Assembly (NCBI RefSeq): GCF_030013205.1
Contig: NZ_CP122648.1
Direction: 5' to 3' (one strand)
Source: Escherichia coli
Lineage (GTDB): Bacteria; Pseudomonadota; Gammaproteobacteria; Enterobacterales; Enterobacteriaceae
DNA: 64,000 nucleotides
Below the pieces are notes generated by a model. It searched no databases. It saw nothing but the letters and a program-made list of their open reading frames with translations, and was not told where the DNA came from. Below, in pieces: positions 1 through 52,009 of this stretch. Position numbers and translations under genes: made by a program. Position 1 is the stretch's first letter. Each line of letters starts with the position of its first letter.

Positions 1-115
1 GCAAGACGTTTATTTGAAGATTATCGATATTGTACAGTCACACGGCGCGGACTTTGCCTTCCCCAGCCAGACGCTGTATATGGATAACATTACACCGCCG
101 GACCAGGGTCGCTAA
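1..115 (+). CDS. ynaI: C-terminal fragment of an MscS-family mechanosensitive channel; 5' end lies outside the window
   Basis: Open frame from the window edge to TAA at 113-115 (tail ...[14 protein letters not shown]). Name assigned from its position next to mppA in the recalled K-12 order. Confidence 0.5.
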
Positions 116-165
116 ATCAGACATCACTGGCGTTATCCACAAGGGTAACGCCAGTTCCCATCACA

Positions 166-1779
166 TCAATGCTTCACAATATACATAGTCCGACTGTACG
201 CCACATCTTCCGGGTTATTAATGGGATAACCTTTCAGCCACGGCTTGATTAATCGTCCATTGGTATATTGATAAATTGGTGCAATCGGTGCTTGCTCCAT
301 GAGGATTTTTTCTGCCGTATTGTAATCGGCATTACGCGCTTTAACGGTATTTTCCGTTGATGCCTGGGCCAGTACTTTGTCGTATGCCGGATTGTTAAAG
401 CGTGAAATATTCCCTGAATGCGTTGACGTTAACAACGTAAGGAAAGTGGAGGGTTCATTATAATCCCCTACCCATGAGGCGCGGATAACATCAAAATTGC
501 CGGTGTTACGGCTATCGATATAGGTTTTCCATTCCTGATTCTGCAATTTAACATCTACGCCAAGGTTCTTTTTCCACATCGATGCTACAGCAATCGCAAT
601 TTTTTGATGGTTTTCTGAAGTGTTATACAAAAGCGTCAGCTTCAGCGGTTTTTGCGGACCATAACCAGCTGCGCTCAACAAAGTTTTTGCCTGCGCATTC
701 AGTTCTTCCTGACTCATTTGTTCAAACGGCGAAGGCTCCGGCGTAAAACCGGCAGTAACATCTGGTGTAAAATGCCACGCTGGCTTTTCCCCCGTCCCCA
801 ACACTTTTTCGGTCATCAGGCGGCGATCTATCGTCATACTTAATGCCAGGCGAACACGCTGATCGGCCGTCGGCCCTTTTTGCGTGCTAAACGCATAATA
901 ATAGGTCCCGAGCTGCGGCGGCGTATAAACCTGCCCCGGAATATCCTTCAACAGCTTCTGATACATATTTTTCGGGAAGGATTCGGTGATATCAATATCC
1001 CCCGCGAGATAACGCTTAGTGGCTGCGGATTCCTGATTAATTGGCAGGAAGGTCACTTTTTGCAGTACCGTTTTGGCGTTATCCCAATAATGGGTATTCG
1101 GCACCACGACCAGTTTTTCATTGACTATGCGCTCTTTAAGAACATAAGCGCCATTGCCGATCAGATTTCCGGGTTTCGTCCACTCTTTACTGCTTTCTAC
1201 GTTGGCTTTTTGCACTGGGAAGAAGGCAAAGTTAGCGGTTAAATTCACAAACCACGGCAACGGTTTATCAAGCTGGATTTTCAAAGTATGGGCATCAACT
1301 GCGGTGACGCCAAGCTGGTCAGGCGTGGCTTTACCATCAATAATCGCCTGTGCGTTGTTAATTCCCGCCAGCGCGGCAAACCATGCAAATGGCGACAATG
1401 TTTTTGGGTCCACCAGACGTTGCCAGCTGTAGACAAAATCTTGCGCCGTTACCGGTGTGCCATCCGCCCATTTTGCGTTATCGCGCAGGGTAAAAGTCCA
1501 AATACGGTTGTCATTACTTTTCCACTGAGTCGCAACGCCGGGGACAATCTCCCCTTTCTCGTTCTGATTCACCAGTCCTTCAAACAGATCGCGAATGACC
1601 TGAATCTCCGGCAGGCCCACGGCTTTAGCGGGATCCAGAGACGCTGGCTCATCTTTAATGTGGCGCACCAGCTCCTGCTTCTCTGCCAGTACTGTGCCGC
1701 TCGGAACTTCAGCAGCATACGAAAGAGAAATGCTGCTGACCAACAGCGCACAACACGTGACTGAAACAGAGTGCTTCAT
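166..1779 (-). CDS. mppA: Periplasmic murein tripeptide-binding protein (OppA paralogue)
   Basis: 544-codon ORF in the track; N-terminus MKHSVSVTCCALLVSSISLSYA is a signal peptide. Start placed at the internal Met (MKHSV) to give the recalled 537 aa. Confidence 0.9.
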   Translation of the reverse strand: MKHSVSVTCCALLVSSISLSYAAEVPSGTVLAEKQELVRHIKDEPASLDPAKAVGLPEIQVIRDLFEGLVNQNEKGEIVPGVATQWKSNDNRIWTFTLRDNAKWADGTPVTAQDFVYSWQRLVDPKTLSPFAWFAALAGINNAQAIIDGKATPDQLGVTAVDAHTLKIQLDKPLPWFVNLTANFAFFPVQKANVESSKEWTKPGNLIGNGAYVLKERIVNEKLVVVPNTHYWDNAKTVLQKVTFLPINQESAATKRYLAGDIDITESFPKNMYQKLLKDIPGQVYTPPQLGTYYYAFSTQKGPTADQRVRLALSMTIDRRLMTEKVLGTGEKPAWHFTPDVTAGFTPEPSPFEQMSQEELNAQAKTLLSAAGYGPQKPLKLTLLYNTSENHQKIAIAVASMWKKNLGVDVKLQNQEWKTYIDSRNTGNFDVIRASWVGDYNEPSTFLTLLTSTHSGNISRFNNPAYDKVLAQASTENTVKARNADYNTAEKILMEQAPIAPIYQYTNGRLIKPWLKGYPINNPEDVAYSRTMYIVKH

Positions 1780-1836
1780 AAGTTTCCCTCTAACCGACAT
1801 TAAAATTGATGCGTAATTATTTGTTTCGCCTTAAAG

Positions 1837-1866
1837 AAATGCAAACAACTTCCATCAAAAAAGTGA
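1837..1866 (+). repeat. 30-bp exact direct repeat, copy A (AAATGCAAACAACTTCCATCAAAAAAGTGA), upstream of mppA
   Basis: Read directly from the sequence; identical 30-mer at 5725-5754. Confidence 0.85.
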
Positions 1867-2115
1867 CAAAGGAAGCATCAAATGTTTTAAGTATCAATAT
1901 ATCAAATCAGATTTAGTGTAAATAATAGTCTCCAAAATGCGGTAAAGCACATAGAACTCCGAACACTACGTTCGGGCTTCGCACGTTCAAACCCGTTTTC
2001 GGTATCATAATCAGCATCTGTCGCCATTGTACGAAGAATAAAAAATGACCAAAACGTTGAAAGGAACTGAGAATACGTTAAGAGAAGAATTAAATTAATG
2101 TATCAGCAAGTAGTG

Positions 2116-3015
2116 CTAAACAGCACCTTTATACTTCAGCCTATCTATAAATAATGAGAATGCCGAGCCAGCATGTCGACGGTGTGGATAGTACAGGTGA
2201 TAACCGGGTAAATCTGGTGTGAATTTATCCAAAACACGTATCAGTTTTTATTCTTTAATAGCCCGCTCAACTTGATCATAAGGTAGATACGCCAATCCAT
2301 GCCCATCAATTGCAGCATCAATGATCAGGTCTATCGTATTCAGTAAAAGCTGACCTTCCATGCGAACACGAACTTCACGTCCACCGCGTATTAATCTCCA
2401 GCGATTTGCTGTACCCGATGTGGGAAGATACAAATTAATTGCCTGATGATCTATTAATTGTGACACTGACGTTGGAGCACTTCGACGAGAAAAATAATCC
2501 GGTGAGCCAACAATAGCCATTGGTATATCTGGCCCGATTCGAATGGCGATCATATCTTTATCCATCTCCCCACCCAGACGGACGCCTGCATCAAAACGTT
2601 CAGAAACGACATCGGTCAAACCATAATCAATGGTAAGCTGGATATCAATTTCAGGATGCGATTTCAGGAATGTGCGCATAGCTGGTAACAATATCGTTTT
2701 TGCTGCATGTTCTACAGTAGTAATACGTATTGTCCCGGATGGGCGGTTCTGCAGATCGCTCAGGGATGTCAGGGCAGAATCTATGTCATGCAACATAGGG
2801 CCAAGAACAGACAAAAGATGCTCGCCCGCTTCAGTGGGTACAACGCTGCGCGTGGTTCGCGTCAGAAGCCGCAATCCCAATCGTTCTTCTATACGGCGCA
2901 CTATCTGGCTTAAAGCTGACTGCGCCATGCTCAGGCGGGCTGCTGCGCGAGTGAAGCTACGCTCCTCTGCAACGACGACAAACGCCATCAGATCAGCGAT
3001 TTCTTCACGCTTCAT
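2116..3015 (-). pseudogene. pgrR: LysR-family regulator PgrR interrupted by an in-frame TAA at 2248-2250; expressed ORF 2248-3015 is 255 codons
   Basis: N-terminal LysR HTH (MKREEIADLMAFVVVAEERSFTRAAARL...). Translating past the TAA in the same frame gives KLIRVLDKFTPDLPGYHLYYPHRRHAGSAFSLFIDRLKYKGAV then TAG at 2116-2118, a typical LysR C-terminus. 255 + 1 + 43 = 299 codons, the length I recall for PgrR. Confidence 0.75.
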
Positions 3016-3039
3016 TCAGTATCTCCATACAATCTATTA

Positions 3040-3053
3040 ATCATTTAAATGAT
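3040..3053. promoter_or_regulatory. 14-bp perfect palindrome ATCATTTAAATGAT in the divergent pgrR/ycjY promoter region; candidate LysR-type (PgrR) operator
   Basis: Palindrome read from sequence. Flanked by a direct repeat GGTCTAATCA (3055-3064 and 3073-3082) and a second palindrome GTGATATCAC (3104-3113). Operator assignment is inference. Confidence 0.35.
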
Positions 3054-3152
3054 AGGTCTAATCATAATTTAGGGTCTAATCAACTTAATGATCAATATCT
3101 ATAGTGATATCACCAACCGTCAAAACGAACCGACAACTCCATGAGGAACGGA

Positions 3153-4073
3153 ATGATGAATAATAAAGTCAGCTTCACTAACAGCAATAATCCAACCATC
3201 TCTTTGTCTGCAGTGATCTATTTCCCTCCAAAATTTGATGAAACCCGTCAGTATCCGGCAATTGTGGTATCTCACCCAGGTGGGGGCGTTAAAGAGCAAA
3301 CGGCTGGAACCTATGCCAAAAAACTGGCGGAAAAGGGATTTGTCACTATTGCTTATGACGCATCTTATCAAGGTGAAAGCGGCGGCGAGCCGCGTCAGTT
3401 AGAAAACCCATACATTCGTACTGAAGACGTCAGTGCCGTGATTGATTACCTGACAACGCTTTCTTATGTCGACAATACCCGAATTGGTGCGATGGGAATT
3501 TGTGCCGGTGCAGGATATACAGCCAATGCTGCAATTCAGGATCGCCGCATCAAGGCCATCGGTACTGTTAGTGCGGTCAATATTGGTTCGATGTTCCGTA
3601 ATGGTTGGGAAAACAATGTGAAATCTATTGATGCCCTACCATACGTTGACGCGGGTTCAAACGCCCGAACCAGCGATATTAGTAGCGGAGAATACGCCAC
3701 TATGCCACTGGCACCAATGAAGGAGTCCGATGCGCCGAACGAAGAACTGCGTCAGGCCTGGGAGTATTACCACACCCCTCGCGCGCAGTATCCAACAGCA
3801 CCGGGTTACGCTACTTTGCGCAGCCTTAACCAGATTATTACCTATGATGCTTACCATATGGCGGAAGTGTACCTGACTCAGCCGATACAGATTGTGGCGG
3901 GCAGCCAGGCAGGGAGCAAATGGATGAGTGACGACCTGTACGATCGAGCATCAAGCCAGGATAAACGCTATCACATTGTTGAAGGCGCAAACCATATGGA
4001 TCTTTATGACGGCAAAGTCTATGTGGCTGAAGCAATTTCAGTATTAGCGCCGTTCTTTGAGGAAACTCTGTAA
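3153..4073 (+). CDS. ycjY: Alpha/beta-hydrolase fold protein (dienelactone-hydrolase-like)
   Basis: ORF 3141-4073; start placed at MMNNKV. Recognised as YcjY by sequence recall. Confidence 0.85.
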   Translation: MMNNKVSFTNSNNPTISLSAVIYFPPKFDETRQYPAIVVSHPGGGVKEQTAGTYAKKLAEKGFVTIAYDASYQGESGGEPRQLENPYIRTEDVSAVIDYLTTLSYVDNTRIGAMGICAGAGYTANAAIQDRRIKAIGTVSAVNIGSMFRNGWENNVKSIDALPYVDAGSNARTSDISSGEYATMPLAPMKESDAPNEELRQAWEYYHTPRAQYPTAPGYATLRSLNQIITYDAYHMAEVYLTQPIQIVAGSQAGSKWMSDDLYDRASSQDKRYHIVEGANHMDLYDGKVYVAEAISVLAPFFEETL

Positions 4074-4147
4074 TGAAACATATTCAAATCCGCAATAGTG
4101 ATATGGCCTGGCATATTACTGCCAATAATCTGGGAAAAGTTTCATGA
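4073..4147 (+). CDS. ymjD: 24-codon small ORF (MKHIQIRNSDMAWHITANNLGKVS) bridging ycjY and ymjC
   Basis: ATG overlaps the ycjY stop (TAATG) and its TGA overlaps the ymjC ATG (ATGA); GAGGAA 12 nt upstream. Below the ORF-track length cut-off. Gene name is tentative. Confidence 0.3.
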   Translation: MKHIQIRNSDMAWHITANNLGKVS

Positions 4148-4770
4148 AAAATGTACTGATTCTTGGTGCTGGCGGTCAGATAGCCCGCCATGTGATTAAT
4201 CAACTGGCAGATAAACAAACCATTAAACAAACTTTATTTGCCCGTCAGCCAGCAAAAATCCACAAACCCTATCCCACTAATAGCAAGATTATTATGGGGG
4301 ATGTACTGAATCATGCAGCACTGAAGCAGGCCATGCAGGGACAGGATGTTGTGTATGCCAACCTTACGGGGGAAGATTTAGATATTCAGGCAAATTCAGT
4401 GATCGCTGCGATGAAAGCCGGTGATGTTAAACGTCTGATCTTTGTTCTTTCCCTCGGTATTTATGATGAAGTTCCAGGAAAATTTGGCGAATGGAATAAT
4501 GCAGTTATTGGTGAGCCCCTAAAACCATTCCGCAGGGCTGCGGATGCAATTGAGGCTTCTGGACTGGAATATACAATTCTTCGCCCTGCCTGGCTGACTG
4601 ATGAAGATATTATTGATTATGAGCTTACCTCACGCAATGAACCATTCAAAGGTACGATCGTATCACGTAAGAGTGTCGCTGCATTAATTACAGATATCAT
4701 CGATAAACCTGAGAAACACATTGGTGAGAATATAGGCATCAATCAACCGGTGATGCTGCCAACTTACTGA
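4144..4770 (+). CDS. ymjC: NAD(P)-binding Rossmann-fold oxidoreductase; 3' end altered by IS1 insertion
   Basis: N-terminal MKNVLILGAGGQIARH is a GxGxxG dinucleotide-binding motif. The last 7 codons (PVMLPTY) and the stop are encoded by the IS1 left end; the original 3' end continues at 5526-5559. Confidence 0.6.
   Translation: MKNVLILGAGGQIARHVINQLADKQTIKQTLFARQPAKIHKPYPTNSKIIMGDVLNHAALKQAMQGQDVVYANLTGEDLDIQANSVIAAMKAGDVKRLIFVLSLGIYDEVPGKFGEWNNAVIGEPLKPFRRAADAIEASGLEYTILRPAWLTDEDIIDYELTSRNEPFKGTIVSRKSVAALITDIIDKPEKHIGENIGINQPVMLPTY
4740..4748. repeat. IS1 target-site duplication, left copy (CAATCAACC)
   Basis: Identical 9-mer immediately flanks both IS1 ends. Confidence 0.85.
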
Positions 4771-4803
4771 TTTAGTGTATGATGGTGTTTTTGAGGTGCT
4801 CCA

Positions 4804-5079
4804 GTGGCTTCTGTTTCTATCAGCTGTCCCTCCTGTTCAGCTACTGACGGGGTGGTGCGTAACGGCAAAAGCACCGCCGGACATCAGCGCTATCTCTGCT
4901 CTCACTGCCGTAAAACATGGCAACTACAGTTCACTTACGCCGCCTCTCAGCCCGGTACGCACCAGAAAATCATTGATATGGCCATGAATGGCGTCGGATG
5001 TCGCGCCAGTGCACGCATTATTGGCGTTGGCCTCAACACGATTTTCCGCCACTTAAAAAACTCAGGCCGCAGTCGGTAA
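4804..5079 (+). CDS. insA: IS1 InsA
   Basis: 91-aa ORF with zinc-finger-like CPSCS...CSHC N-terminus; matches recalled InsA. Confidence 0.9.
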
Positions 5080-5501
5080 CCTCGCGCATACAACCGGGCA
5101 GTGATGTGATTGTCTGCGCTGAAATGGACGAACAGTGGGGCTACGTCGGTGCTAAATCACGTCAGCGCTGGCTGTTTTACGCGTATGACAGGATGCGGAG
5201 GACGGTTGTGGCGCACGTCTTCGGTGAACGCACTCTGGCCACACTGGAGCGTCTTCTGAGCCTGCTGTCGGCCTTTGAGGTCGTGGTATGGATGACGGAT
5301 GGCTGGCCGCTGTATGAATCACGCCTGAAGGGAAAGCTGCACGTTATCAGCAAGCGTTATACTCAGCGCATTGAGCGGCATAACCTGAATCTGAGACAAC
5401 ATCTGGCAAGGCTGGGACGGAAGTCACTGTCGTTCTCAAAATCGGTGGAGCTGCATGACAAGGTCATCGGGCATTATCTGAACATAAAACACTATCAGTA
5501 A
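4998..5501 (+). CDS. insB: IS1 InsB (transposase catalytic part, made as an InsAB' fusion by -1 frameshift)
   Basis: 167-aa ORF overlapping insA in the -1 frame; matches recalled InsB. Confidence 0.85.
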
Positions 5502-5516
5502 GTTGGAGTCATTACC

Positions 5517-5525
5517 CAATCAACC
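5517..5525. repeat. IS1 target-site duplication, right copy (CAATCAACC)
   Basis: Identical to 4740-4748. Confidence 0.85.
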
Positions 5526-5577
5526 CGGGACTGATGGTGATAAGACATTCTTCATGTAAATCAATTATATAGCTACC

Positions 5578-5612
5578 ATCGTACTGTACTATGTGCAGTA
5601 CGATTTATTAAA
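5578..5612 (+). terminator. Hairpin (ATCGTACTG / CAGTACGAT, 9-bp stem) followed by a T-rich stretch, downstream of the original ymjC stop
   Basis: Inverted repeat read from sequence; lies about 20 nt past the displaced ymjC stop at 5557-5559. Confidence 0.4.
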
Positions 5613-5724
5613 CTTATTAAGGTGAACTGATCAATCAGATGCGATTAACATGTGTAGAACCAGTAAGAATAAAATACGCCATGTATATAACATTACGACA
5701 ATTCTAATATCTGCACATCAATGA

Positions 5725-5754
5725 AAATGCAAACAACTTCCATCAAAAAAGTGA
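5725..5754 (+). repeat. 30-bp exact direct repeat, copy B, upstream of mpaA
   Basis: Identical to 1837-1866. Confidence 0.85.
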
Positions 5755-5849
5755 TACAAGATCGATAACATAGCGTTGAAGAAAAGGATTTGATAATCCG
5801 CAAAATTTGCACAACACTGCCTGTAATACTTCCTGAACCAGAGACGATC

Positions 5850-6552
5850 ATGACCGTAACTCGCCCACGCGCCGAACGCGGCGCATTTCCGCCCGGAACA
5901 GAACATTACGGACGTTCATTATTGGGCGCGCCGTTAATCTGGTTTCCGGCCCCTGCAGCCAGTCACGAAAGTGGTTTGATTCTGGCTGGCACTCACGGTG
6001 ATGAAAACTCTTCGGTCGTCACGCTCTCCTGTGCTCTGCGGACGTTGACACCGTCTTTGCGCCGCCATCATGTGGTGCTGTGTGTGAATCCTGACGGCTG
6101 CCAGTTGGGGTTACGGGCCAATGCTAATGGTGTGGATTTAAACAGAAACTTTCCGGCGGCGAACTGGAAGGAAGGTGAAACCGTTTATCGCTGGAACAGC
6201 GCCGCTGAAGAACGTGATGTCGTATTGCTGACAGGTGACAAACCTGGCTCCGAACCTGAAACCCAGGCGCTGTGCCAGCTTATACACCGCATTCAACCCG
6301 CCTGGGTGGTCTCATTCCACGATCCGCTGGCCTGTATTGAAGATCCCAGACACAGCGAATTAGGCGAATGGCTGGCCCAGGCGTTTGAATTGCCTCTGGT
6401 AACCAGCGTCGGTTATGAAACGCCTGGCTCTTTCGGCAGTTGGTGTGCAGATCTCAACTTGCATTGCATCACCGCAGAGTTTCCGCCCATCTCCTCCGAC
6501 GAAGCCAGCGAAAAATATCTCTTTGCGATGGCAAACTTGCTGCGCTGGCATC

Positions 6553-6578
<26 letters not shown>
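5850..6578 (+). CDS. mpaA: Murein peptide amidase A (gamma-D-Glu-meso-Dap amidase)
   Basis: ORF 5790-6578; start placed at MTVTRPRAER to give 242 aa. Recognised by sequence recall. Confidence 0.85.
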
Positions 6579-7559
<981 letters not shown>

Positions 7560-7635
7560 ATAGCGTTTGCTGTGTTATTGACAGTTAGCATAAACTAGGT
7601 GTGACGTTAACTATATGTAAACAGGAAAGATAATC

Positions 7636-8142
7636 ATGTCACAAACCGTTCATTTCCAGGGCAACCCGGTTACAGTCGCCAATTCCATCCCGCAGGCGGG
7701 TAGCAAAGCGCAGACTTTTACTCTCGTGGCAAAAGATCTGTCTGACGTCACCCTCGGTCAGTTTGCGGGTAAACGCAAAGTGCTGAACATTTTCCCGAGT
7801 ATTGATACCGGTGTTTGCGCCGCATCAGTACGTAAGTTTAATCAACTGGCAACCGAGATCGACAACACCGTTGTGCTGTGTATCTCTGCCGATCTGCCGT
7901 TCGCCCAGTCTCGTTTCTGCGGCGCAGAAGGTCTGAACAACGTTATCACCCTCTCCACTTTCCGTAATGCTGAATTCCTGCAAGCCTACGGTGTGGCAAT
8001 TGCTGATGGCCCACTGAAAGGTCTGGCAGCGCGTGCCGTTGTGGTTATTGATGAAAATGACAATGTGATTTTCAGCCAGCTGGTGGATGAAATCACCACC
8101 GAGCCGGATTACGAAGCAGCTCTGGCTGTACTGAAAGCATAA
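7636..8142 (+). CDS. tpx: Thiol peroxidase
   Basis: 168-aa ORF; recognised by sequence recall. Confidence 0.95.
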
Positions 8143-8145
8143 GTT

Positions 8146-8180
8146 AATATGCCTGATGGTGTTGCACCATCAGGCATATT
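8146..8180. terminator. Bidirectional intrinsic terminator between convergent tpx and tyrR (16-bp perfect stem, 3-nt loop)
   Basis: AATATGCCTGATGGTG-TTG-CACCATCAGGCATATT sits between the tpx stop (8140-8142) and the tyrR stop (8186-8188). Confidence 0.7.
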
Positions 8181-8185
8181 CGCGC

Positions 8186-9727
8186 TTACTCTTCGTTCTT
8201 CTTCTGACTCAGACCGTATTCCCGCAACTTATTGGCAATCGCGGTATGCGAAACGCCCAGGCGTTTTGCCAGTTTGCGCGTGCTGGGATAATTGCGATAA
8301 AGCTGGGTTAATACCGAGCGTTCAAAACGGCTGGTGATTTCGTCCAGCGAACCTTCCATCGCATCTTCGCCCACGGCTACCGTTGCGGCGTCATAATCCG
8401 GTAACAAAATATCCTGTGGACGCAGCTCATAACCGTCCAGTTGTGTCAGTGCGCGATAAATAGCGTTCTTTAACTGCCGCACATTTCCCGGCCACGCATA
8501 ACGCGTAAGTACAGTATTCAGGTCAGCGGCCAGTTTCGGACGCGGCACGCCCTGCTCGTCGGCAAAGCGGGCGACGAACAGCTCGGTTAACGGCATGATG
8601 TCCTGCGGACAGTCACGTAGCGGCGGCAGATTAAGCGTCAACACGTTCAGACGATAATAAAGATCTTCACGGAACACGCCTTTTTGCACCAGTTCGACAA
8701 GATTCTTCTGCGTCGCGCAAATCACCCGCACATCGACATGCACCTCATGGTCTTCGCCAACCCGACGGAAAGTGCCATCATTAAGGAAACGCAGTAATTT
8801 CGCCTGCATCCGTGGTGACATCTCACCTATTTCATCCAACAGCACCGAACCACCGTTCGCCTGCTCAAAGAACCCTTTCTTCCCTTCCGGAGCATGACCA
8901 AACAGTTCACTCTCGACCGCATCTTCCGGTATAGACGCACAGTTCAGCGCCAGATAGGGTTTGCCCGCGCGTGGGCTTGCCTGATGACAGGCATATGCAA
9001 AGAGATCTTTTCCGGTGCCGGTATCACCGGTTATCAGCAATGGCGCGCTTAGCATCGCCAGTTTCTGCGCCTGTTCGACAACATGCTTCATTTTCGGGCT
9101 GACGGCGACAATTTGACTGAAGGCGCTGACGTCCTGGGCGGCGACATTTTGCAACTGACGACCCATACGAATCGTTGATCGCAACATCACCACCGCACCG
9201 GTCAGGACGTGTTGATCATTTTCATCCTGAAGATAAACAGGCGTAATCTCCATCAGGAAATTCTGTCCATTAATAACGACATGCTCGTTATGGGAATCCT
9301 GCGGTTCGCTTTCCAGCCAGCGTAAAAAATTAAAGCCGTTAATCAATTGCGCGGCGGTATGGTTGCGCAGGCGATCCAATTTTTGCCCAAAAAGCTGACA
9401 GCTCGCCGGGTTCGCCATATCCACTTTGCTTTTCATATCGACAGAGAGCACAGGTTCAGGCAACGCTTCCAGTAACGCGCTCAACGCCAGATGCTCACGT
9501 TCAGAAGGCATCCACGGGACAGTACGGACATCGGTAACACCTGCAATACGGCGTATTTCGGCCATCAGACTGCTGAAACTCTCAAACTCCAGTTCAGCAA
9601 AATTGAGGTAGATTCGCCCAATGGGATCAATCTCAATACCGCGTAAATCAATGCCTCTTAGCACGAGTAGATCGAGTAATTCGCGGGTCAGACCGAGTCG
9701 GTCTTCACAAAAGACTTCCAGACGCAT
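8186..9727 (-). CDS. tyrR: Sigma54-type enhancer-binding-protein-family regulator TyrR
   Basis: ORF 8186-9754; start placed at MRLEVFCEDR to give 513 aa. Recognised by sequence recall. Confidence 0.9.
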   Translation of the reverse strand: MRLEVFCEDRLGLTRELLDLLVLRGIDLRGIEIDPIGRIYLNFAELEFESFSSLMAEIRRIAGVTDVRTVPWMPSEREHLALSALLEALPEPVLSVDMKSKVDMANPASCQLFGQKLDRLRNHTAAQLINGFNFLRWLESEPQDSHNEHVVINGQNFLMEITPVYLQDENDQHVLTGAVVMLRSTIRMGRQLQNVAAQDVSAFSQIVAVSPKMKHVVEQAQKLAMLSAPLLITGDTGTGKDLFAYACHQASPRAGKPYLALNCASIPEDAVESELFGHAPEGKKGFFEQANGGSVLLDEIGEMSPRMQAKLLRFLNDGTFRRVGEDHEVHVDVRVICATQKNLVELVQKGVFREDLYYRLNVLTLNLPPLRDCPQDIMPLTELFVARFADEQGVPRPKLAADLNTVLTRYAWPGNVRQLKNAIYRALTQLDGYELRPQDILLPDYDAATVAVGEDAMEGSLDEITSRFERSVLTQLYRNYPSTRKLAKRLGVSHTAIANKLREYGLSQKKNEE

Positions 9728-9797
9728 GGGAACCTTCACCTGAAAAAAGAACAATTAATATGATGATATGACACTATTTGGATAGCAGGAAGGTTTC

Positions 9798-9815
9798 TGT
9801 CAACAATCATTGACA
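9798..9815. promoter_or_regulatory. Candidate TyrR box (TGTCAA-N6-TTGACA) in the tyrR upstream region
   Basis: Palindrome fits the TGTAAA-N6-TTTACA pattern; tyrR is known to be autoregulated. Assignment of this particular site is inference. Confidence 0.4.
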
Positions 9816-9874
9816 CAAAGACGGAAAAACGGGCACTTCGGCGTAAAGATATCCGGTCAGCACCCGATATTGCA

Positions 9875-10936
9875 TTATTTTTCGCTGGGCGTTTTGCCTT
9901 TTTGCAGAGTTTCTTTCACCTGACCGATAAGCTGACGACGGAAATCCCCGAGGCGTGGCTTGTCATCGTCAATCCACGGCAGCGGGCGGCAAAGCTCCAT
10001 AGCTTTAATCCCCAGTCGTGCCGTCAGAAGTCCTGCACCAATCCCCTGAGCTGCGCGGGTAGACAAACGCGCAGCGAGATCTTGCGACATCCAGTCCATC
10101 CCCACTTCGCGAACCAGTTCGCTGGCTCCGGCGAAAGCGATATTCAGCAATACCAGCTTGAACAGGCGCAAACGGCTGTAATACCCCAGTTCAATGCCAT
10201 ACAGCGTGGCGATGCGATTAATCAAACGCAGATTGCGCCAGGCGATAAATGCCATATCCACCAGCGCCAGCGGGCTAACGGCGATCATTAACGTTGATTC
10301 CGCTGCCGAACGGCTGATTTCGCGCCGTGCCTGGGCATCTAAAACCGGCTGGACCAGATGAGCATACAGGCTGACCACTTCACGATCGTTCTGCGTTTCA
10401 TGGATTGAGGCATACCAGCGTTGCAGCGCCGGATGCGACTGATCAATACCCGCCTGCTGCGCCAGTTTTTCGCAGAATGCACGGCCTTTACCCGTGCCGT
10501 GACTGTGCAACAAATCGCGCGCTTCGTCGCGTTCATGGGCGCGCTGTCGCAAGCGCCATAAGCGCCGCCACTCTGTTACCACAGAACCTACGCCAGCGCC
10601 GATAATCAATGCCCCAGCGGCACATCCACCCAGCGCCACCCAGTCCTGGGTTTGCCAGGCGTTCATTGTCCACTGTACACCCTGCCCGACAACGCTTGCG
10701 CCAAACAGAGCCAACCCGCCCATCACCATTTTGCGCCACAGGCTGCGTTTCGGACGTAACGCTGCATCCATTACCGCTTCAACTTGCCCCTCTTCTTCCT
10801 GCGCTTCATCGAGCGTGGCCGGGGCAAAATTTTGCGCCTGATTTTCGTCAAAGGTCTGCTGCACCCTGAATTTTGGATTCTGATCGACCTCCAGTGGACC
10901 GTCGAAATCAATACGTGGTTTTAACGGTTCGGTCAT
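9875..10936 (-). CDS. ycjF: Inner-membrane protein of unknown function (UPF0283 family)
   Basis: 353-aa ORF with central hydrophobic segments; overlaps the ycjX stop by 4 bp. Confidence 0.85.
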
Positions 10937-44473: not shown

Positions 44474-45637
44474 TTACTTTTGATTGTCGATTCTGGTGAG
44501 AGCAACCAGCAATGCCAGCGTATAACACACCGTAATTGCCAGACTCATTTTTAACAGTGTTTCTCCGCCAATTCCCGACAATGGCGCGGCTATACCGCCG
44601 AAGACAAACATGCTCATCCCCATCAACGCAGACGCCGTTCCAGATTCCTGCGTCCCTACTGCACTCATAGCCTCTGCCCCGCCAACAGTGCCGATGCCGC
44701 TACAAAATGCGATGGTGAAAAATAATGCCACCAGTGCCGGAATGGGCAATTGTATCCATGCGCATAAGACCGTGAGCATTGCACACAAAATTGCCGCTAT
44801 CAGGCCACCTCGCAACAATGTCATCGCGTTAATCCGTCGCGCCAGGCGCGAGAAGATCCATGAAGCAATGATAAGTCCGATGCCGTTAAGGCCAAACACC
44901 AGGCTAAATTGCATTGGACTAAAGCCAAATTCCTTCTGCAACACGAACGACGAAGAGCCGATATATGCAAACAAACCGGCCAGCATAAAACTTTGAATCA
45001 GGCAAAAGCGCATAAAACGGCGGTTCTGCACCACGCTTCGTCCGGTTAATAGCAATGATGAGCCCCTTTTATTTTCTGGCAAGGTCTCATTAATAAATAA
45101 CAGGCAGCCCAGCAACAGTACGGTGCTAATTTCAGCCATTACCCAGAATAAAGTGCGCCAGTCAAAAGTGCTGACAATGTACCCGCCCAGCACTGGCGAC
45201 AACACCGGTGCCAGGCCATTCACCGTCATTAACAGCGCAAAAAACTGGGTCAACGTTACTCCCTGATATTTGTCACGAGCAATAGAACGAGAGAGCACCG
45301 AACCACCCGCCCCCGCGATCCCTTGAATAAAACGCCAGACCACCAGCCAGTAAATATTGTTCGTTGTCGCGCACAAAATGGAAGAAACAATAAACAATAG
45401 CAACGACAAGATTAACGGACGTTTACGCCCTATTTTGTCGCTCAGAGGGCCAAATAACAGTTGTCCGACGCCAAGACCGATCAGTGATGCAGTCAGCGTT
45501 AATTGCGTTATGGTCGTGGTTGCCGCCAGTTGCTCAGACATCTCCGGCAAAGCCGGCAAATAAAGATCGGTACACATCGGGCCGATACCGGCTAAAAGAC
45601 CAAGAATCAATGCCCATGAAAGAGAGACTCTAGCCAT
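44474..45637 (-). CDS. MFS (DHA1, Bcr/CflA-like) efflux transporter; last gene of the efflux cluster
   Basis: 387-aa polytopic membrane ORF with MFS signature GPLSDKIGRKRP after the first helices; starts 8 nt after the OMF stop. Confidence 0.8.
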   Translation of the reverse strand: MARVSLSWALILGLLAGIGPMCTDLYLPALPEMSEQLAATTTITQLTLTASLIGLGVGQLLFGPLSDKIGRKRPLILSLLLFIVSSILCATTNNIYWLVVWRFIQGIAGAGGSVLSRSIARDKYQGVTLTQFFALLMTVNGLAPVLSPVLGGYIVSTFDWRTLFWVMAEISTVLLLGCLLFINETLPENKRGSSLLLTGRSVVQNRRFMRFCLIQSFMLAGLFAYIGSSSFVLQKEFGFSPMQFSLVFGLNGIGLIIASWIFSRLARRINAMTLLRGGLIAAILCAMLTVLCAWIQLPIPALVALFFTIAFCSGIGTVGGAEAMSAVGTQESGTASALMGMSMFVFGGIAAPLSGIGGETLLKMSLAITVCYTLALLVALTRIDNQK

Positions 45638-45645
45638 ATTATTCC

Positions 45646-47019
45646 TTACTTGAGTGATGACATGCCGCCGTCCAGCGACTGCCAGAGCGTGATTCGGTTT
45701 GTAAAATCAGTCAGTTGTAGTGCCAGCAGCGCCTGCTGTGCGCTCCACAAGCTGCGCTGCGCCGTCAACACGGTCAGGTAATCACCAACACCCGCCTGAT
45801 AGCGACGCAAGCCAACATCGACCGTTTGTTGCTCAGCTTTAACATACTGGCGCTGTGCATCCAGTTGCTCTTCAAGCGTGGTCCGCCGCGCCAGTGCGTT
45901 AGCGACATCTTTAAATGCGCTCTGAACGGTTTTTTCATAGGTGGCAATGAGTCCACGCTTTTGTGCTTCTGCGTAACGAAGCTGCGCCAGATTACTTCCG
46001 CCAGTGAACAGCGGTAATGTGACCGATGGCGTAAATGACCAGATCTGCATTCCGTGGCTGAACAACGACGACAATGCGTCACTGCCAACACCAGCGCTGG
46101 CAGTCAGCGAAATCGTCGGAAAAAAGTTAGCCCGCGCCGCGCCAATATCGGCATTGGCGCTCTTCAAATTATGTTCCGCTTCCTGGATATCCGGGCGACG
46201 CAGCAGAACGTCAGATGACACTCCCGCAGGAACCAGACTTATCATTTGTTCCGGCAGGCTTTCCAGTGTTCCCGGTAGCAGATTTTCCGCAAGCGTTGTA
46301 CCTGCCAGTAAGTTCAGCGCATTTTTATCCTGCATCACTTGTGTCTGATAGCTGGCAACGCTGGCGCGCGCTTGCTGATAAACACTCATCGCCTCACTGA
46401 CATCTGTCGCTGCCGCCGTGCCAACCTGTTGCTGGCGCTGGATAATTTTCAATGAGTTTTCTGCACTGGCCATCGTTTCTTTTGCCAGGGCCAGGTTGCT
46501 GTTATCAGCCGCCAGTGTCAGCCAGGCGGTGCTGATTTCAGCAATCAGCGTTAAACGAGTGTTCTGGGCTGTAAATTCACTGGCAAGCCAGGTTTCCCGC
46601 GCCGCCCGAGATAAACTCTGATTACGACCAAACAGATCTAACGTAAAACTGGACACCGTGCCGTCAGCCTCGGCAGTGGTTTCCGTACCATTCGCCAGCG
46701 AACGACTGCGGGTTGAACTTAAGGCCGCATTCACCGTCGGGAATAACGACGCATTAGTTTGCCCATAGAGCGCCCGTGCTGAGTCAATATCAGCAATCGC
46801 TTTTTGCACATCGCGGTTACTGTTCAGTGCAATAGTCACCACCTGCTGCAATCGGGGATCGTGGATCACCTGCTGCCAGTCATGGCTGATTGCCTTTCCC
46901 TGGCCCTGTGCTCCCGGCAAGGTCGCCGGGATTGGGGATTCAGGCGTGCTGTAGTGGGGCTCGAGCGAGACACATCCCGCACTCAACAGCACCAGAAAAA
47001 TAAGAGAACGACGCAACAT
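45646..47019 (-). CDS. Outer-membrane efflux lipoprotein (OMF, NodT/OprM family)
   Basis: 457-aa ORF with lipoprotein signal peptide (LLSAGC) and the long coiled-coil-rich body typical of OMFs. Confidence 0.8.
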   Translation of the reverse strand: MLRRSLIFLVLLSAGCVSLEPHYSTPESPIPATLPGAQGQGKAISHDWQQVIHDPRLQQVVTIALNSNRDVQKAIADIDSARALYGQTNASLFPTVNAALSSTRSRSLANGTETTAEADGTVSSFTLDLFGRNQSLSRAARETWLASEFTAQNTRLTLIAEISTAWLTLAADNSNLALAKETMASAENSLKIIQRQQQVGTAAATDVSEAMSVYQQARASVASYQTQVMQDKNALNLLAGTTLAENLLPGTLESLPEQMISLVPAGVSSDVLLRRPDIQEAEHNLKSANADIGAARANFFPTISLTASAGVGSDALSSLFSHGMQIWSFTPSVTLPLFTGGSNLAQLRYAEAQKRGLIATYEKTVQSAFKDVANALARRTTLEEQLDAQRQYVKAEQQTVDVGLRRYQAGVGDYLTVLTAQRSLWSAQQALLALQLTDFTNRITLWQSLDGGMSSLK

Positions 47020-47022
47020 AAC

Positions 47023-50000
47023 TTACTCCTGACGGCGCGGTTTACCGGCAAACAAACGTTTCACCAGTACAAAAAACAGAGGAACAAAGAAAATAGCCAG
47101 CAACGTAGCGGTCAGCGTACCGCCAATAATGCCCGTACTAATGGCGATGCGGCTGTTCGCCCCTGCGCCGGTTGCTATCGCCAGCGGCATTACCCCCGCA
47201 ATAAACGCCAGCGAGGTCATGATGATTGGGCGTAAACGAGTCTGCGCCGCGCGTAATGCCGCACGACTCAAGGAATAGCCCTCTGCAACCGCCGCTTCAG
47301 CAAATTCCACAATCAGAATGGCGTTTTTCGACGACAAGCCGATAGTGGTTAATAGCGCCACCTGGAAGTAAACATCGTTGTTTAAATCACGCATCCAGGC
47401 CGCCAGCGCCGCGCCAAGAAGCCCCAGAGGGATCACCAGAATGACCGAGAACGGGACTGACCAGCTTTCGTACAGTGCTGCAAGGCAGAGGAAAACCACC
47501 AGAATAGAAACTGCATACAGACTCAATGCCTGACCGCTGGCCAGTTTCTCCTGCAATGACAAACCACTCCAGGCCCAGGTTGTTCCCGCAGGAAGACTGT
47601 TTGCCAGTTCCTCCATTTTTGTCATTGCATCGCCGGAACTAAAGCCAGTCGCATTTTCCCCCTGAATTTCATAGGCTGCCGAGCCGTTGTAGCGCACCAG
47701 TCTTTCCGGTCCATACAGCCAGCGGGTGGTCGCAAAAGCAGAGAATGGTGTCATGGCGTTATCGCTGCCGCGCACAAACCATTTACCTAAGTCTGACGGC
47801 GCGGAACGAAATTCGCTGTCGCCCTGAATGTAGACTTTTTTCACACGACCACGGTCAATAAAGTCATTCACATAAGTACCGCCCCACGCACTGGACAGGG
47901 TGTCGGTGACATCATTCAAACTCAACCCTAATGACACCACTTTATTGCTATCAATATCTACCTGCAATTGCGGCATTTGTGGCAAATCATTGGCGCGTAC
48001 AGAATGTAACTCCGGACTTTGATTCGCTTTTTCTATCAACTGATTACGCATTTGCAGCAGTGTTTCACGATCGGTTCCACCGTTAGCTAACAATTCAAAC
48101 GTAAAACCATTGCTTTGCCCCAGCCCATCAACGGCTGGCGGCGTCATCGCAAATACCGTGGCATCACGAATTGTGCCCAGCTCTTTGGTTGCCCGTAGGG
48201 CGATAGCCTGGGCGGTGTTTTCTGCCCCTTTACGTTGAGACCAGTTTTTCAACGAAACAAACGCCATCCCGGTGTTCTGTCCGCTGCCGCTAAAACTGAA
48301 ACCATCAACGGTAAAGATGACATCGGTATTTGCTTTCTCGTTAATCAGGAACCAGTCAACAATCTGGCGATTCACTTCTGCTGTACGGGCAGCGGTCGCC
48401 CCGGCCGGCAGCGTGTACTGCACCATGATTTCGCCCTGGTCTTCAGTGGGTAAGAAACTGCCCGGCAGTTTCCACATCATCAGGGCCATTCCACCACCCA
48501 GTACGACATAAAGCCCCATCGTTCGAGCAGCACGGCGCAGGACATAAATTACGCCTCGCTGATATTTATCTTCAGTACGGCGGTAAAAGCGGTTAAATGC
48601 GCCAAAAAAGCCTTTTTTATGTGGCGGAACATGCTGGAGGACGGAACCGCACAGGGCGGGAGTCAAGGTCAATGCCACTACCACGGAAAGCAGCATTGCG
48701 GAGATAATGGTTATCGAAAACTGACGATAAATTACCCCCGTAGATCCCCCAAAGAAGGCCATAGGCAGGAATACGGCTGACAACACCAGCGCAATGGCAA
48801 CCAGTGCGCCAGAAATCTCGCCCATTGATTTTTCCGTGGCTTCACGCGCGGGCAACCCTTCGTCACGCATAATGCGTTCGACGTTCTCCACCACCACAAT
48901 GGCATCGTCCACCAGCAAGCCGATCGCCAGCACCATTGCAAACAACGTCAGGGTATTAATCGAATAGCCAAACAACGCAAGAACGCCGAATGTGCCCAGC
49001 AAAACGACGGGGACAGCTAACGCCGGAATCAGTGTGGCACGCAGGTTTTGCAGGAATAAATACATCACGCAAACCACCAATACGATGGCTTCAAACAGCG
49101 TCTGAATTACGTCCTCTACAGAGATTTTAATAAATTCAGTGCTGTCTTTCGGGTATGCGATGTCGTATCCCTGCGGCATGTTCCGCTGGAATTCGGCAAT
49201 CTTATCCTTGACCAGCGTCGCCGTATTCAGCGCATTCGCACCGGGCGAAAGCATTACAGCAACCCCGGCAGACGGGTGACCGTTAAGTTTGCCGATAGCG
49301 GTATAATCTTCACTGCCCATCTCAACGCGAGCCACATCTTTTATACGAACAACTGCGCCGTCTGACTGGCTTTTCACGATAATATTTTTGAACTGATCCA
49401 CCGTCTGCAAGCGAGACTGCGCACGTACCGTTGCGGTCAGTTGCTGAGTATTCGGTGAAGGCAATGCCCCTATTTTCCCGGCAGTAACCTGCACGTTTTG
49501 CGCTTCAATAGCACTTTGCACGTCTGAAGGCATTAGCGAGTAAGACGCCAGTTTGGCCGGGTCAAGCCAGATGCGCATAGCGTATTCCGCGCCAAAGACT
49601 TGCAGACTCCCCACACCTTCAACACGCGCCAGCGGGTCCTGAACGTTACTAACCAACCAGTCGGCGATATCCGAACTGGAGGCTTTGTCAGTGGTGTCAT
49701 ACACGGCAGCAATCAGCAAAAAGTTGCTTTGTGATTTCTCCACCGTAACACCCGTTTGCTGCACTTCGCTGGGTAGGCGCGACTCCGCCTGCTGAATTTT
49801 ATTCTGCACCTGAACCTGTGCAGTATCTGGATCGGTACCTTGTTCAAAGGTCACATTAATACTGACCGAACCATCAGAGCTGCTGGTTGAGCTGAAATAG
49901 AGTAAATTATCAAGCCCAGTGAGTTGTTGCTCGATAACCTGAGTCACGCTGTTCTCCAGCGTTTCGGCAGAAGCACCAGTATAAGTGGCTGAAATTTTAA

Positions 50001-50130
50001 TGGTCGGTGGCGCAACGTCAGGATATTGTGCGACGGGCAATGTGCGAATAGCCAGAATCCCCGCCAACATAATCAAAATGGCGATAACCCAGGCAAAGAC
50101 CGGGCGGCGAACAAAAAAGCGCGAAAACAT
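47023..50130 (-). CDS. RND (HAE1, AcrB/MexB-like) inner-membrane efflux pump
   Basis: 1035-aa ORF with strong recalled similarity to AcrB blocks (MFSRFF..RPVFAWVIAI..., VQVQNK..., GLLVDDAIVVVENVER, NDVYFQVALLTTIGLS). Start overlaps the MFP stop (TGATG). Confidence 0.85.
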   Translation of the reverse strand: MFSRFFVRRPVFAWVIAILIMLAGILAIRTLPVAQYPDVAPPTIKISATYTGASAETLENSVTQVIEQQLTGLDNLLYFSSTSSSDGSVSINVTFEQGTDPDTAQVQVQNKIQQAESRLPSEVQQTGVTVEKSQSNFLLIAAVYDTTDKASSSDIADWLVSNVQDPLARVEGVGSLQVFGAEYAMRIWLDPAKLASYSLMPSDVQSAIEAQNVQVTAGKIGALPSPNTQQLTATVRAQSRLQTVDQFKNIIVKSQSDGAVVRIKDVARVEMGSEDYTAIGKLNGHPSAGVAVMLSPGANALNTATLVKDKIAEFQRNMPQGYDIAYPKDSTEFIKISVEDVIQTLFEAIVLVVCVMYLFLQNLRATLIPALAVPVVLLGTFGVLALFGYSINTLTLFAMVLAIGLLVDDAIVVVENVERIMRDEGLPAREATEKSMGEISGALVAIALVLSAVFLPMAFFGGSTGVIYRQFSITIISAMLLSVVVALTLTPALCGSVLQHVPPHKKGFFGAFNRFYRRTEDKYQRGVIYVLRRAARTMGLYVVLGGGMALMMWKLPGSFLPTEDQGEIMVQYTLPAGATAARTAEVNRQIVDWFLINEKANTDVIFTVDGFSFSGSGQNTGMAFVSLKNWSQRKGAENTAQAIALRATKELGTIRDATVFAMTPPAVDGLGQSNGFTFELLANGGTDRETLLQMRNQLIEKANQSPELHSVRANDLPQMPQLQVDIDSNKVVSLGLSLNDVTDTLSSAWGGTYVNDFIDRGRVKKVYIQGDSEFRSAPSDLGKWFVRGSDNAMTPFSAFATTRWLYGPERLVRYNGSAAYEIQGENATGFSSGDAMTKMEELANSLPAGTTWAWSGLSLQEKLASGQALSLYAVSILVVFLCLAALYESWSVPFSVILVIPLGLLGAALAAWMRDLNNDVYFQVALLTTIGLSSKNAILIVEFAEAAVAEGYSLSRAALRAAQTRLRPIIMTSLAFIAGVMPLAIATGAGANSRIAISTGIIGGTLTATLLAIFFVPLFFVLVKRLFAGKPRRQE

Positions 50131-51251
50131 CAGGCGTTGCCTCCATTAGCCTGAACTTCAACAGCCTTGACGGTCTGCCCTGAAGTGACTTTGGCAGAAC
50201 CTTCAACAATCAGTCGGTCGCCGTTGTGCAGGCCGTTCAGCACCAGCCATTTATCACCATACGTTTCTCCCGTTTCGAGCGTTCGCTGCTCTACTTTATT
50301 GTCTTTATTCACCACCAGCGCAGTTGCATTGCCTTTAGCATCGCGCGTGACGCCCTGTTGCGGCGCGAGAATAGCGTCTTCCATCACGCCTTCATCGACA
50401 CGAGCGCGAACAAACATTCCCGGTAATAACTGCTGTTGTGGATTGGGGAAAATCGCCCGTAATGTCACCGAACCGGTAGACTCATCTACAGCGACTTCGG
50501 TGAGTTCCAGACGCCCTTTTTCGCTGTAGGTTGTGCCATCTTCCAGAATAAGTGAGACGCTCATGGTGTCACTGTTGGTCGCCAGTGACTGTTTACGCAG
50601 ACGTAATAAATCGACACTGGAGCGAGTGAGGTCGACATACATTGTCTCCAGACCACGAATAGTCGTTAACGCTGTATCTTGCGACGCGGTCACCAGTGCG
50701 CCAGGGGTTACCGACGAAATGCCAATTCGCCCTGAAATCGGTGCGGTTACCGTGGTCCAGTCAAGATTAATGCGCGCAGTTTCCAGCGCGGCTTTTTTCG
50801 CCTCTACACTGGCTTTATCTTGTGCACAGGTAGACTGAGCATCATCAGCATCCTGTTGTGAAACACCGTTCTCTTTCACCAGTCGGGCATAACGCTGCGC
50901 TTTCTGGCAATCGGCTTTTACCAGTGCCTGTGCTTGTTGTAATGCTGCCCGAGCTTCATTCCATGCAGCCTGATAACTGGCCGCATCAATCTGGTAGAGA
51001 GGCTGTCCAGCCTTGACCAGATCCCCTTCCTTAAATAAGCGTTTCTGGATAATTCCCCCAACCTGCGGACGTACTTCAGCACTGAGCGCAGCACTGGTGC
51101 GTCCGGTTAATTCACTGACTACCGAGACCGGTTGAGATTTGACTGTAACAACGCCGACTTCTGTTTCTGACGGGGATGAATTGTTACTTTGCGTATTATC
51201 ACAACCAGATAAGAGCAGCATTGCCACTACAGATGTTGCTATATACTTCAT
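50130..51251 (-). CDS. Periplasmic membrane-fusion lipoprotein (AcrA/MexA family)
   Basis: ORF 50130-51284; start placed at MKYIATSVVAMLLLSGC (lipobox, GGAG 8 nt upstream). Confidence 0.8.
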   Translation of the reverse strand: MKYIATSVVAMLLLSGCDNTQSNNSSPSETEVGVVTVKSQPVSVVSELTGRTSAALSAEVRPQVGGIIQKRLFKEGDLVKAGQPLYQIDAASYQAAWNEARAALQQAQALVKADCQKAQRYARLVKENGVSQQDADDAQSTCAQDKASVEAKKAALETARINLDWTTVTAPISGRIGISSVTPGALVTASQDTALTTIRGLETMYVDLTRSSVDLLRLRKQSLATNSDTMSVSLILEDGTTYSEKGRLELTEVAVDESTGSVTLRAIFPNPQQQLLPGMFVRARVDEGVMEDAILAPQQGVTRDAKGNATALVVNKDNKVEQRTLETGETYGDKWLVLNGLHNGDRLIVEGSAKVTSGQTVKAVEVQANGGNA

Positions 51252-51278
51252 TATTTTCTCCAGGGTGAGAAATACCCT

Positions 51279-51298
51279 CCTCATTAAAATTAATGAGG
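51279..51298. promoter_or_regulatory. Perfect inverted repeat CCTCATTAA-aa-TTAATGAGG 28-47 nt upstream of the MFP start; candidate operator
   Basis: Read from sequence; 9-bp arms, 2-bp spacer. Confidence 0.35.
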
Positions 51299-51335
51299 AT
51301 ATGTCAGGGATATTCAGTTATAACGAACCCGCATC

Positions 51336-51351
51336 GCGAAATGAATTTCGC
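51336..51351. promoter_or_regulatory. Perfect inverted repeat GCGAAAT-ga-ATTTCGC between tetR and the MFP gene; candidate operator
   Basis: Read from sequence; 7-bp arms, 2-bp spacer. Confidence 0.35.
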
Positions 51352-51361
51352 AATGAAATAA

Positions 51362-51379
51362 GGGGGATTAATATCCCCC
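51362..51379 (-). terminator. GC hairpin (GGGGGA-TATTAA-TCCCCC) followed by a U-rich tract on the minus strand, 20 nt after the tetR stop
   Basis: Minus strand reads hairpin then TTATTTCATT; candidate terminator or attenuator between regulator and pump genes. Confidence 0.4.
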
Positions 51380-51399
51380 GCTATTGGTTAATTCTGTTC

Positions 51400-51966: not shown

Positions 51967-51991
51967 TTCTGTCTCCTGGCCTATCACTTGG

Positions 51992-52009
51992 TGAGAATGA
52001 TCGTTCTCA
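51992..52009. promoter_or_regulatory. 18-bp imperfect palindrome TGAGAATGATCGTTCTCA 26 nt upstream of the proposed tetR start; candidate autoregulatory operator
   Basis: Two mismatches from perfect dyad symmetry. Confidence 0.35.

Follow-up and report, generated by a model that had tools for sequence, protein, structure and literature searches.

An iso-IS1 element interrupts the gene of an SDR-family oxidoreductase close to its 3′ end in the porcine Escherichia coli strain ETEC4079, from which a window of 64,000 nucleotides (64 kb) was analyzed. We consider it highly probable that a single recent transposition of an active iso-IS1 into codons 202/203 of this gene, in the ancestor of a porcine clade, produced the arrangement as part of the near-neutral decay of the surrounding gene module. 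The element would have entered an AT-rich target once in the ancestor of this small clade, with vertical inheritance thereafter. The insertion itself is already annotated in seven RefSeq genomes and is ordinary textbook IS1 biology.

Repeat, ORF and profile analysis of the window identifies positions 4749-5516 as a complete IS1 of 768 bp, and the claim to this effect in an earlier, sequence-only reading is borne out by the inverted repeats, the open reading frames, the frameshift site and the match to NF033558. The left inverted repeat (IRL, 4749-4771, + strand; 23 nt, GGTGATGCTGCCAACTTACTGAT) shows 0 mismatches to the canonical IS1 IRL and is the sole such site in the 64-kb window. The right inverted repeat (IRR, 5494-5516, + strand; 23 nt) is an imperfect inverted copy of IRL, the pair being 83% complementary over 23 nt. 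A promoter-like site, CTGCCA-16-TATGAT (4756-4783), begins in IRL and faces insA (4804-5079, + strand), which has 91 codons and a GTG start in the PGAP annotation. The A6C -1 programmed frameshift site TTAAAAAACTC (5053-5063, + strand) lies in the insA frame and joins insA to insB′. The insB′ frame is open, and a -1 shift at A6C gives an uninterrupted InsAB′ transposase of 232 aa (4804-5501, + strand), which matches the NCBIfam profile NF033558 (transpos_IS1) with 242.8 bits, against a cutoff of 100, over profile positions 1-199 of 199. PGAP labels the IS1 transposase gene "programmed frameshift". Every defining IS1 feature that was tested was found, namely the length, the inverted repeats, the frameshift fusion, the NF033558 score and a 9-bp duplication with an empty site.

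The element has in common with the IS1 family its 768 bp, the 23-nt imperfect terminal repeats starting GGTGATGCTGCC, the insA/insB′ arrangement read through an A6C -1 frameshift, the 9-bp target duplication and the AT-rich target region. It differs from the K-12 copies IS1A (93.4% identity) and IS1F (96.0%) and is therefore an iso-IS1 variant. Copies with at least 99% identity to it account for only 150 of ~9,600 matching records, and among the matches listed all 100% copies (25/25) come from pig isolates, where they lie on chromosomes as well as plasmids. The variant is apparently pig-associated. IS1 occupies ~20 places in ETEC4079, and because the number of places varies from ~13 to 22 per chromosome in this lineage, IS1 appears to be still transposing there. 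The present case illustrates this ongoing expansion in the porcine lineage and carries little weight beyond strain typing.

The target-site duplication CAATCAACC is located at 4740-4748 (left copy, + strand, abutting IRL) and at 5517-5525 (right copy, + strand, abutting IRR), in agreement with the identical flanking 9-bp copies described before. The window contains exactly 2 copies of CAATCAACC, each touching one IS1 end. The presence of at least 2 copies anywhere in the window is not rare in itself (14/100 shuffles); the chance identity of two directly flanking 9-mers is ~4^-9 = 3.8e-6. The IS1 transposase InsAB′ cleaves its target with a stagger of 9 bp, and after repair the target is present twice. 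At this site, InsAB′ would have cut 9 bp apart and subsequent repair would have doubled CAATCAACC. In the sister strain ETEC1701, the empty site has the sequence ...GGCATCAATCAACCCGGGACTG..., in which CAATCAACC occurs once. The GC content around the target is 35-37%, compared to 51% for the window. AT-rich DNA is a favored IS1 target, and the low-GC target fits this preference.

The distribution of the insertion dates it and establishes that it is real. Seven complete, independently assembled genomes share this insertion together with its duplication: six are from Belgium (ETEC1748, 4067, 4069, 4070, 4071 and 4079) and one is from South Korea (K_EC180). ETEC4079 is the same as ETEC1748 over 60 kb except for one base, which is private to ETEC4079. 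Sister pig strains, including ETEC1701, 4068, 4075, 6333 and 6334, the O139:H1 strains P15-25 and W13-16, and EC556, EC571 and EC581, have the empty site, with a single CAATCAACC and 100%-identical flanks. Apart from IS1, the 50 kb compared show only 6 SNPs and 2 single-base indels between ETEC4068 and the window. A query with the reconstructed empty site finds the contiguous, uninterrupted site in 2,913 of 5,426 complete E. coli genomes. The insertion is derived, because these 2,913 genomes keep the uninterrupted site; as judged from these sequences, it is also recent and vertically inherited in a small clade.

The transposition is genuine rather than an assembly artefact, because seven assemblies share the insertion and near-identical sisters have the single-copy empty site. 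This is the conclusion that the sequence-only reading had drawn from the duplication, and the comparison with IS1-free alleles of related genomes that it had proposed upholds it, in the sisters as well as among the 5,426 genomes. The artefact that it had raised as the opposing case is an IS1 copy misplaced or collapsed into the site, and a genome with ~20 IS1 places is the usual setting for such misassembly. Nevertheless, we regard this explanation as scarcely credible. The 9-bp duplication is perfect and is single-copy in the empty allele, and the same junctions recur in seven complete assemblies from two countries and different platforms, the one from the other country (K_EC180) having been sequenced with PacBio RS II and Illumina (PMC8071739). 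An artefact is excluded on these grounds.

Without IS1, the SDR ORF encodes 212 aa and ends ...GINQPGTDGDKTFFM*. In the window, it has become a chimeric SDR/NmrA-like oxidoreductase ORF (4144-4770, + strand) of 208 aa, in which residues 1-202 are native and are followed by VMLPTY; the product ends ...GINQPVMLPTY*, with its stop codon at 4768-4770, inside IRL. The displaced 3′ end of the gene (P-GTDGDKTFFM-stop, 5524-5559, + strand; stop 5557-5559) encodes the C-terminal motif of the family. The earlier reading had seven IS1-encoded codons, PVMLPTY, replacing a tail still readable from 5526. The replacement is real, but its extent requires adjustment. The proline codon is common to both alleles, being formed by CC from the target together with either G from IS1 or C from the original sequence. 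The insertion at codons 202/203 thus exchanges 10 residues (GTDGDKTFFM) for 6 (VMLPTY), and the displaced end reads from 5524. PGAP names the protein "SDR family oxidoreductase" and treats the 208-aa form as an ordinary CDS; the intact allele has 212 aa.

The Rossmann core is kept. The protein matches Pfam PF13460 (NAD_binding_10) with E = 3e-54 over residues 8-189 and model positions 1-184 of 184, and the GxxGxxG/A test finds the N-terminal dinucleotide-binding motif (G8-A-G-G11-Q-I-A14). The AlphaFold model consists of alternating beta/alpha elements, the last beta-strand comprising residues 196-200. Both the Pfam core (residues 8-189) and this last strand remain in the IS1 allele. Aligned over the full 212 residues, PDB entry 3QVO ("NmrA family protein") shares 98% identity with the SDR protein, its tail GTDGDKPFFM included; the last 10 of these residues are missing from the window allele.

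Homologs of the SDR family are widespread (4,746 at E <= 1e-10) and nearly always 211-212 aa long. With 22 homologs aligned, the most divergent at 66% identity, the C-terminus P-G-(T/S)-D-G-D-K-P-Y-F-M is among the best conserved segments: D205, D207, K208, F211 and M212 do not vary, and conservation reaches at least 90% at G206, P209 and Y210. The motif is recognizable even in the distant PDB homologs 4ipt and 3r6d. When the alleles are tested for this conserved subfamily tail, it is present in the intact allele of the sister strains and absent from the IS1 allele (...INQPVMLPTY). In the AlphaFold model, pLDDT is below 50 for tail residues 206-212 and for the conserved loop 105-123. In the IS1 allele, the SDR frame continues into IRL and terminates after six foreign codons, with loss of the C-terminal DGDKP(Y/F)FM motif. 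The enzyme is probably lost or impaired by the insertion, since the insertion removes the invariant C-terminal D-G-D-K-P-Y-F-M motif; it would be either inactivated or crippled. The retained core and last strand, the low confidence of the modelled tail and the ordinary CDS call by PGAP weigh against such a loss. The identity of the replaced tail as a conserved motif is an addition to the sequence-only reading. In K_EC180, the SDR gene carries a further frameshift, apparently a 1-bp deletion.

The names ymjD and ymjC used in the earlier reading are acceptable by orthology, but K-12 ymjC is a 60-codon deletion remnant. In the window, ymjD (4073-4147, + strand) is likewise a remnant: it preserves the initial ~18 codons of a second alpha/beta-hydrolase gene, which this lineage has lost by deletion and which E. 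coli ET479 and STEC2018-553 still have intact. The K-12 sequence of ymjD and of the first ~46 codons of ymjC aligns almost base for base with the window locus. From there the two differ. The K-12 deletion extends from ~codon 47 of ymjC to ~140 bp upstream of mpaA, whereas the gene in the window is full length, with IS1 10 codons before its end. Over the complete E. coli genomes, the 3′ segment of the SDR gene is absent from 2,484/5,426 (~46%).

Other E. coli genomes have received IS1 in the same module independently. In Ecol_745, 181.1, ET479, STEC2018-553 and B19374, the elements are each bordered by a separate 8-9-bp duplication; the interrupted sequences are ycjY, ymjD, the gene of the second hydrolase, the SDR gene and the ymjC remnant. 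The sites, duplications and IS1 variants all differ from those of the window, which marks them as separate events. The shared orientation of all the module insertions reflects a search bias, since only same-strand pieces were joined. An IS1 hotspot was considered and rejected, because a total of five or six insertions within ~2.5 kb, out of thousands of genomes, does not clearly exceed chance.

The module begins with ycjY (3153-4073, + strand), encoding an alpha/beta hydrolase, and its LysR regulator is encoded by pgrR (2116-3015, - strand). In the window, pgrR is a pseudogene owing to K256*, with TAA at 2248-2250. The change from AAA to TAA lies inside an A8 run; all seven IS1-bearing genomes have it, and it is confined to them. 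In ETEC1701, the same run has independently been shortened to A7, which results in a frameshift. The dead pgrR of the IS1 clade had escaped the sequence-only reading. A Shigella-like origin, suggested by the broken appearance of pgrR and ycjG, is rejected, as the window matches E. coli ETEC4079. As a separate observation, an Rfam scan of positions 1-10,000 returned nothing at threshold and one sub-threshold RAGATH-10 match, inside pgrR. As a clonal marker, the IS1 insertion combined with pgrR K256* cleanly identifies a porcine ETEC/Stx2e-type sublineage present in Belgium and South Korea.

Comparison with other genera indicates what the locus once contained. In Klebsiella/Salmonella and Stenotrophomonas, the module consists of LysR-hydrolase-hydrolase-SDR genes and further oxidoreductases, without mpaA; the divergent LysR regulator is 87% identical to PgrR and the YcjY-like hydrolase 93% identical to its counterpart. 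K-12 ymjC and ymjD are relics of this conserved module, which has been lost repeatedly in E. coli by deletion, IS1 and point mutation. This lineage has lost the second hydrolase, this clade the regulator, and nearly half of E. coli the SDR gene. The simplest reading of these sequences is an accessory module in continuing decay under relaxed selection, in which IS1 would be one near-neutral step. A non-random clustering of lesions in the module was also considered; it is weakened by the 6 SNPs and 2 indels that lie elsewhere in the 50 kb compared with the sister.

The joint occurrence of the two lesions also allows an adaptive explanation, in which they are functionally linked. Loss of PgrR would have derepressed ycjY-SDR-(mpaA), and a polar IS1 would then have been selected to stop a harmful over-expression of MpaA, whose excess would divert murein tripeptide from recycling; the reverse order is equally conceivable. 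PgrR is reported to control ycjY-ymjDC-mpaA (PMC5934670), both lesions are found in exactly the same genomes, and the independent frameshift of ETEC1701 at the same A8 run hints at recurrent loss. If true, this would tie IS polarity to the control of murein-peptide catabolism and to the balance of recycling versus degradation in a pig-adapted pathogen. However, we find it very unlikely. Any two mutations that became fixed along one short branch would be found together, and several further differences distinguish the clade from a sister within 50 kb. The chance of a nonsense mutation beside one of ~10 new IS1 copies is ~0.1, as a rough, uncomputed estimate, and the A8 run is a mutable homopolymer. 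In addition, a hairpin and a 290-bp spacer part mpaA from the module, to which it does not belong in other genera. Near-neutral decay of the LysR-hydrolase-hydrolase-SDR module, with the insertion as a further step, would account for both lesions.

The gene mpaA (5850-6578, + strand), encoding murein tripeptide amidase, is intact (NF007897, 478.7 bits) and starts 334 bp past the right end of IS1. We regard mpaA as a neighbor and not an ancestral member, because the module is found in other genera without it. The spacer between the SDR gene and mpaA has 34% GC. At its upstream side is a hairpin (5578-5604, + strand) with a 12-bp stem, 19 nt after the original SDR stop and followed by the tail TTATTAAA. 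Its predicted dG is -17.2 kcal/mol (z -3.0). The hairpin fails the standard terminator rule and was left uncalled by the terminator scan; it is possible, judging from its sequence and position, that it acts as a weak terminator closing the module. The same palindrome was considered as a LexA box and rejected by eye, since the span from CTG to CAG is 15 nt and not 16. Downstream of the hairpin, the spacer contains two promoter-like sites, TTAACA-19-TAAAAT (5645-5675) and TTGATA-17-AACACT (5790-5818). A stricter promoter scan of the spacer, requiring at least 9/12 positions and 16-18 nt spacing, found none. Inspection of the spacer by eye for a sigma-54 site gave only an off-spacing match on the wrong strand. 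At IRR, no hybrid outward promoter was seen by eye, as no acceptable -10 lies 16-18 nt from TTGGAG.

The insertion lengthens the distance from the ycjY promoter region to mpaA by 777 bp, with IS1 oriented like both. Classically, an IS1 insertion is strongly polar through Rho-dependent termination. Transcription from the ycjY promoter would mostly end in the poorly translated IS1 by such polarity, and any read-through contribution to mpaA would be lost; mpaA probably keeps expression from its own spacer. The earlier reading was physically correct in placing IS1 between mpaA and the genes ycjY-ymjD-ymjC with their promoter, and this agrees with the K-12 listing, in which PgrR controls ycjY-ymjDC-mpaA as one unit (PMC5934670). 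Any functional effect is less secure, because the operon evidence comes from K-12, where neither the hairpin nor one half of the spacer survived the deletion, which left ymjC within 81 bp of mpaA, and because another paper from the same group gives the unit as ycjY-ymjDC, omitting mpaA (PMC3946193), and the spacer has promoter-like sites. From the sequence, a substantial effect of IS1 on mpaA seems doubtful. A further point against our preferred explanation is that mpaA may depend on the ycjY promoter more than assumed, given the K-12 listing as one unit (PMC5934670) and the failure of the hairpin under the terminator rule.

A stronger version holds that the insertion matters mainly by silencing mpaA, which would be transcribed essentially from the ycjY promoter alone, so that the clade could not use murein tripeptide. 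The K-12 listing, the strong polarity of IS1 and the empty result of the stricter promoter scan all argue in this direction, as does a 1-bp deletion at position 7087 causing a frameshift in ycjG, the next pathway gene, in ETEC4079. Even so, we consider such silencing unlikely. The K-12 arrangement to which the listing refers was itself created by the deletion, the shorter unit excludes mpaA, and the candidate promoters at 5645-5675 and 5790-5818 lie downstream of the hairpin. The ycjG frameshift is private to ETEC4079 and may be an assembly error. That K-12 ymjC and ymjD are relics of a repeatedly lost module advises caution in treating the K-12 "ycjY-ymjDC-mpaA operon" as a functional peptidoglycan-recycling unit. 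In all seven IS1-bearing genomes, both mpaA and mppA are intact.

The seven IS1-bearing genomes (the six Belgian isolates ETEC1748, 4067, 4069, 4070, 4071 and 4079, and K_EC180 from South Korea) also share a lesion in the LysR regulator gene pgrR. This gene lies on the minus strand at window 2116–3015 and carries the nonsense mutation K256* at 2248–2250, where AAA is changed to TAA within an A8 run. Among the 5,240 genomes with this segment, K256* is confined to the seven IS1 genomes and is found in 0 others. The pgrR gene of the sister pig strain ETEC1701, which has an empty IS1 site, is frameshifted at the same run by an A8 to A7 change, independent of K256*. In K_EC180, the SDR gene (L018 3045–3670) has acquired an extra 1-bp frameshift besides the IS1 insertion common to the clade, and it is labelled "frameshifted" by PGAP.

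Five more independent IS1 insertions were found in the module, in Ecol_745, 181.1, ET479, STEC2018-553 and B19374 (L003–L007). They interrupt ycjY, ymjD, the gene for the second hydrolase, the SDR gene or what remains of ymjC, with the target duplications TAATCCAAC, GCATATTG, TGTCTCAG, ACTGAAGTG and ACCCTATCC, and the IS1 variants involved are not alike.

The ymjD reading frame (window 4073–4147) is what remains of a second alpha/beta-hydrolase gene (310 aa), of which it retains the first ~18 codons. The hydrolase gene is complete in E. coli ET479 and STEC2018-553, as well as in Klebsiella/Salmonella, and is deleted in the window and in K-12. A hairpin with a 12-bp stem and a 3-nt loop (window 5578–5604; ΔG −17.2 kcal/mol, z −3.0) lies 19 nt 3' of the original SDR stop, with TTATTAAA after it. 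This hairpin may act as a weak terminator or as a palindromic site for protein binding, and the K-12 deletion spans it.

In the Klebsiella/Salmonella and Stenotrophomonas contigs (L013–L017), the SDR gene lies within a conserved module without mpaA, composed of a LysR regulator, two hydrolases, the SDR, adh_short and an OYE flavin oxidoreductase. Therefore, the primary role of PgrR is probably to regulate this redox/hydrolase module. Defence genes of the CBASS/Pycsar type (SMODS, AGS_C, SLATT_6, PycTM) come after the module in L013 and L014.

Comparison with the sister strain ETEC4068 revealed single-base differences in ycjW, ycjT and ycjM, which are part of the ycj sugar-utilisation cluster, at window 13297, 16233 and 25137. 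For all three genes, the RefSeq protein accession in ETEC4068 is not the one in ETEC1748, which is identical in sequence to the window here; thus, these differences are amino-acid changes. An accessory efflux cluster between sapF and fabI (window ~44,500–52,000) encodes a TetR regulator, an RND adaptor, an RND permease, an outer-membrane factor and an MFS transporter. ETEC4068 has a frameshift at an A-run (window 50113) in its RND permease gene, and the annotation of its RND adaptor gene is that of an incomplete pseudogene.

The L-Ala-D/L-Glu epimerase gene ycjG (window 6553–7517, minus strand) is frameshifted in ETEC4079 by a 1-bp deletion at ~7087–7088, CGCGCCTGCC becoming CGCGCTGCC. Since the deletion occurs in ETEC4079 only (1 of 5,414 genomes), it reflects either a mutation private to this genome or an error in its assembly. 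The convergent mpaA and ycjG overlap at their 3' ends by 26 bp (window 6553–6578). In E. coli, ycjG–mpaA has been described as a convergent "excludon", and mpaA–ycjG–tpx as a non-contiguous operon, in a 2025 paper (PMC12288877).
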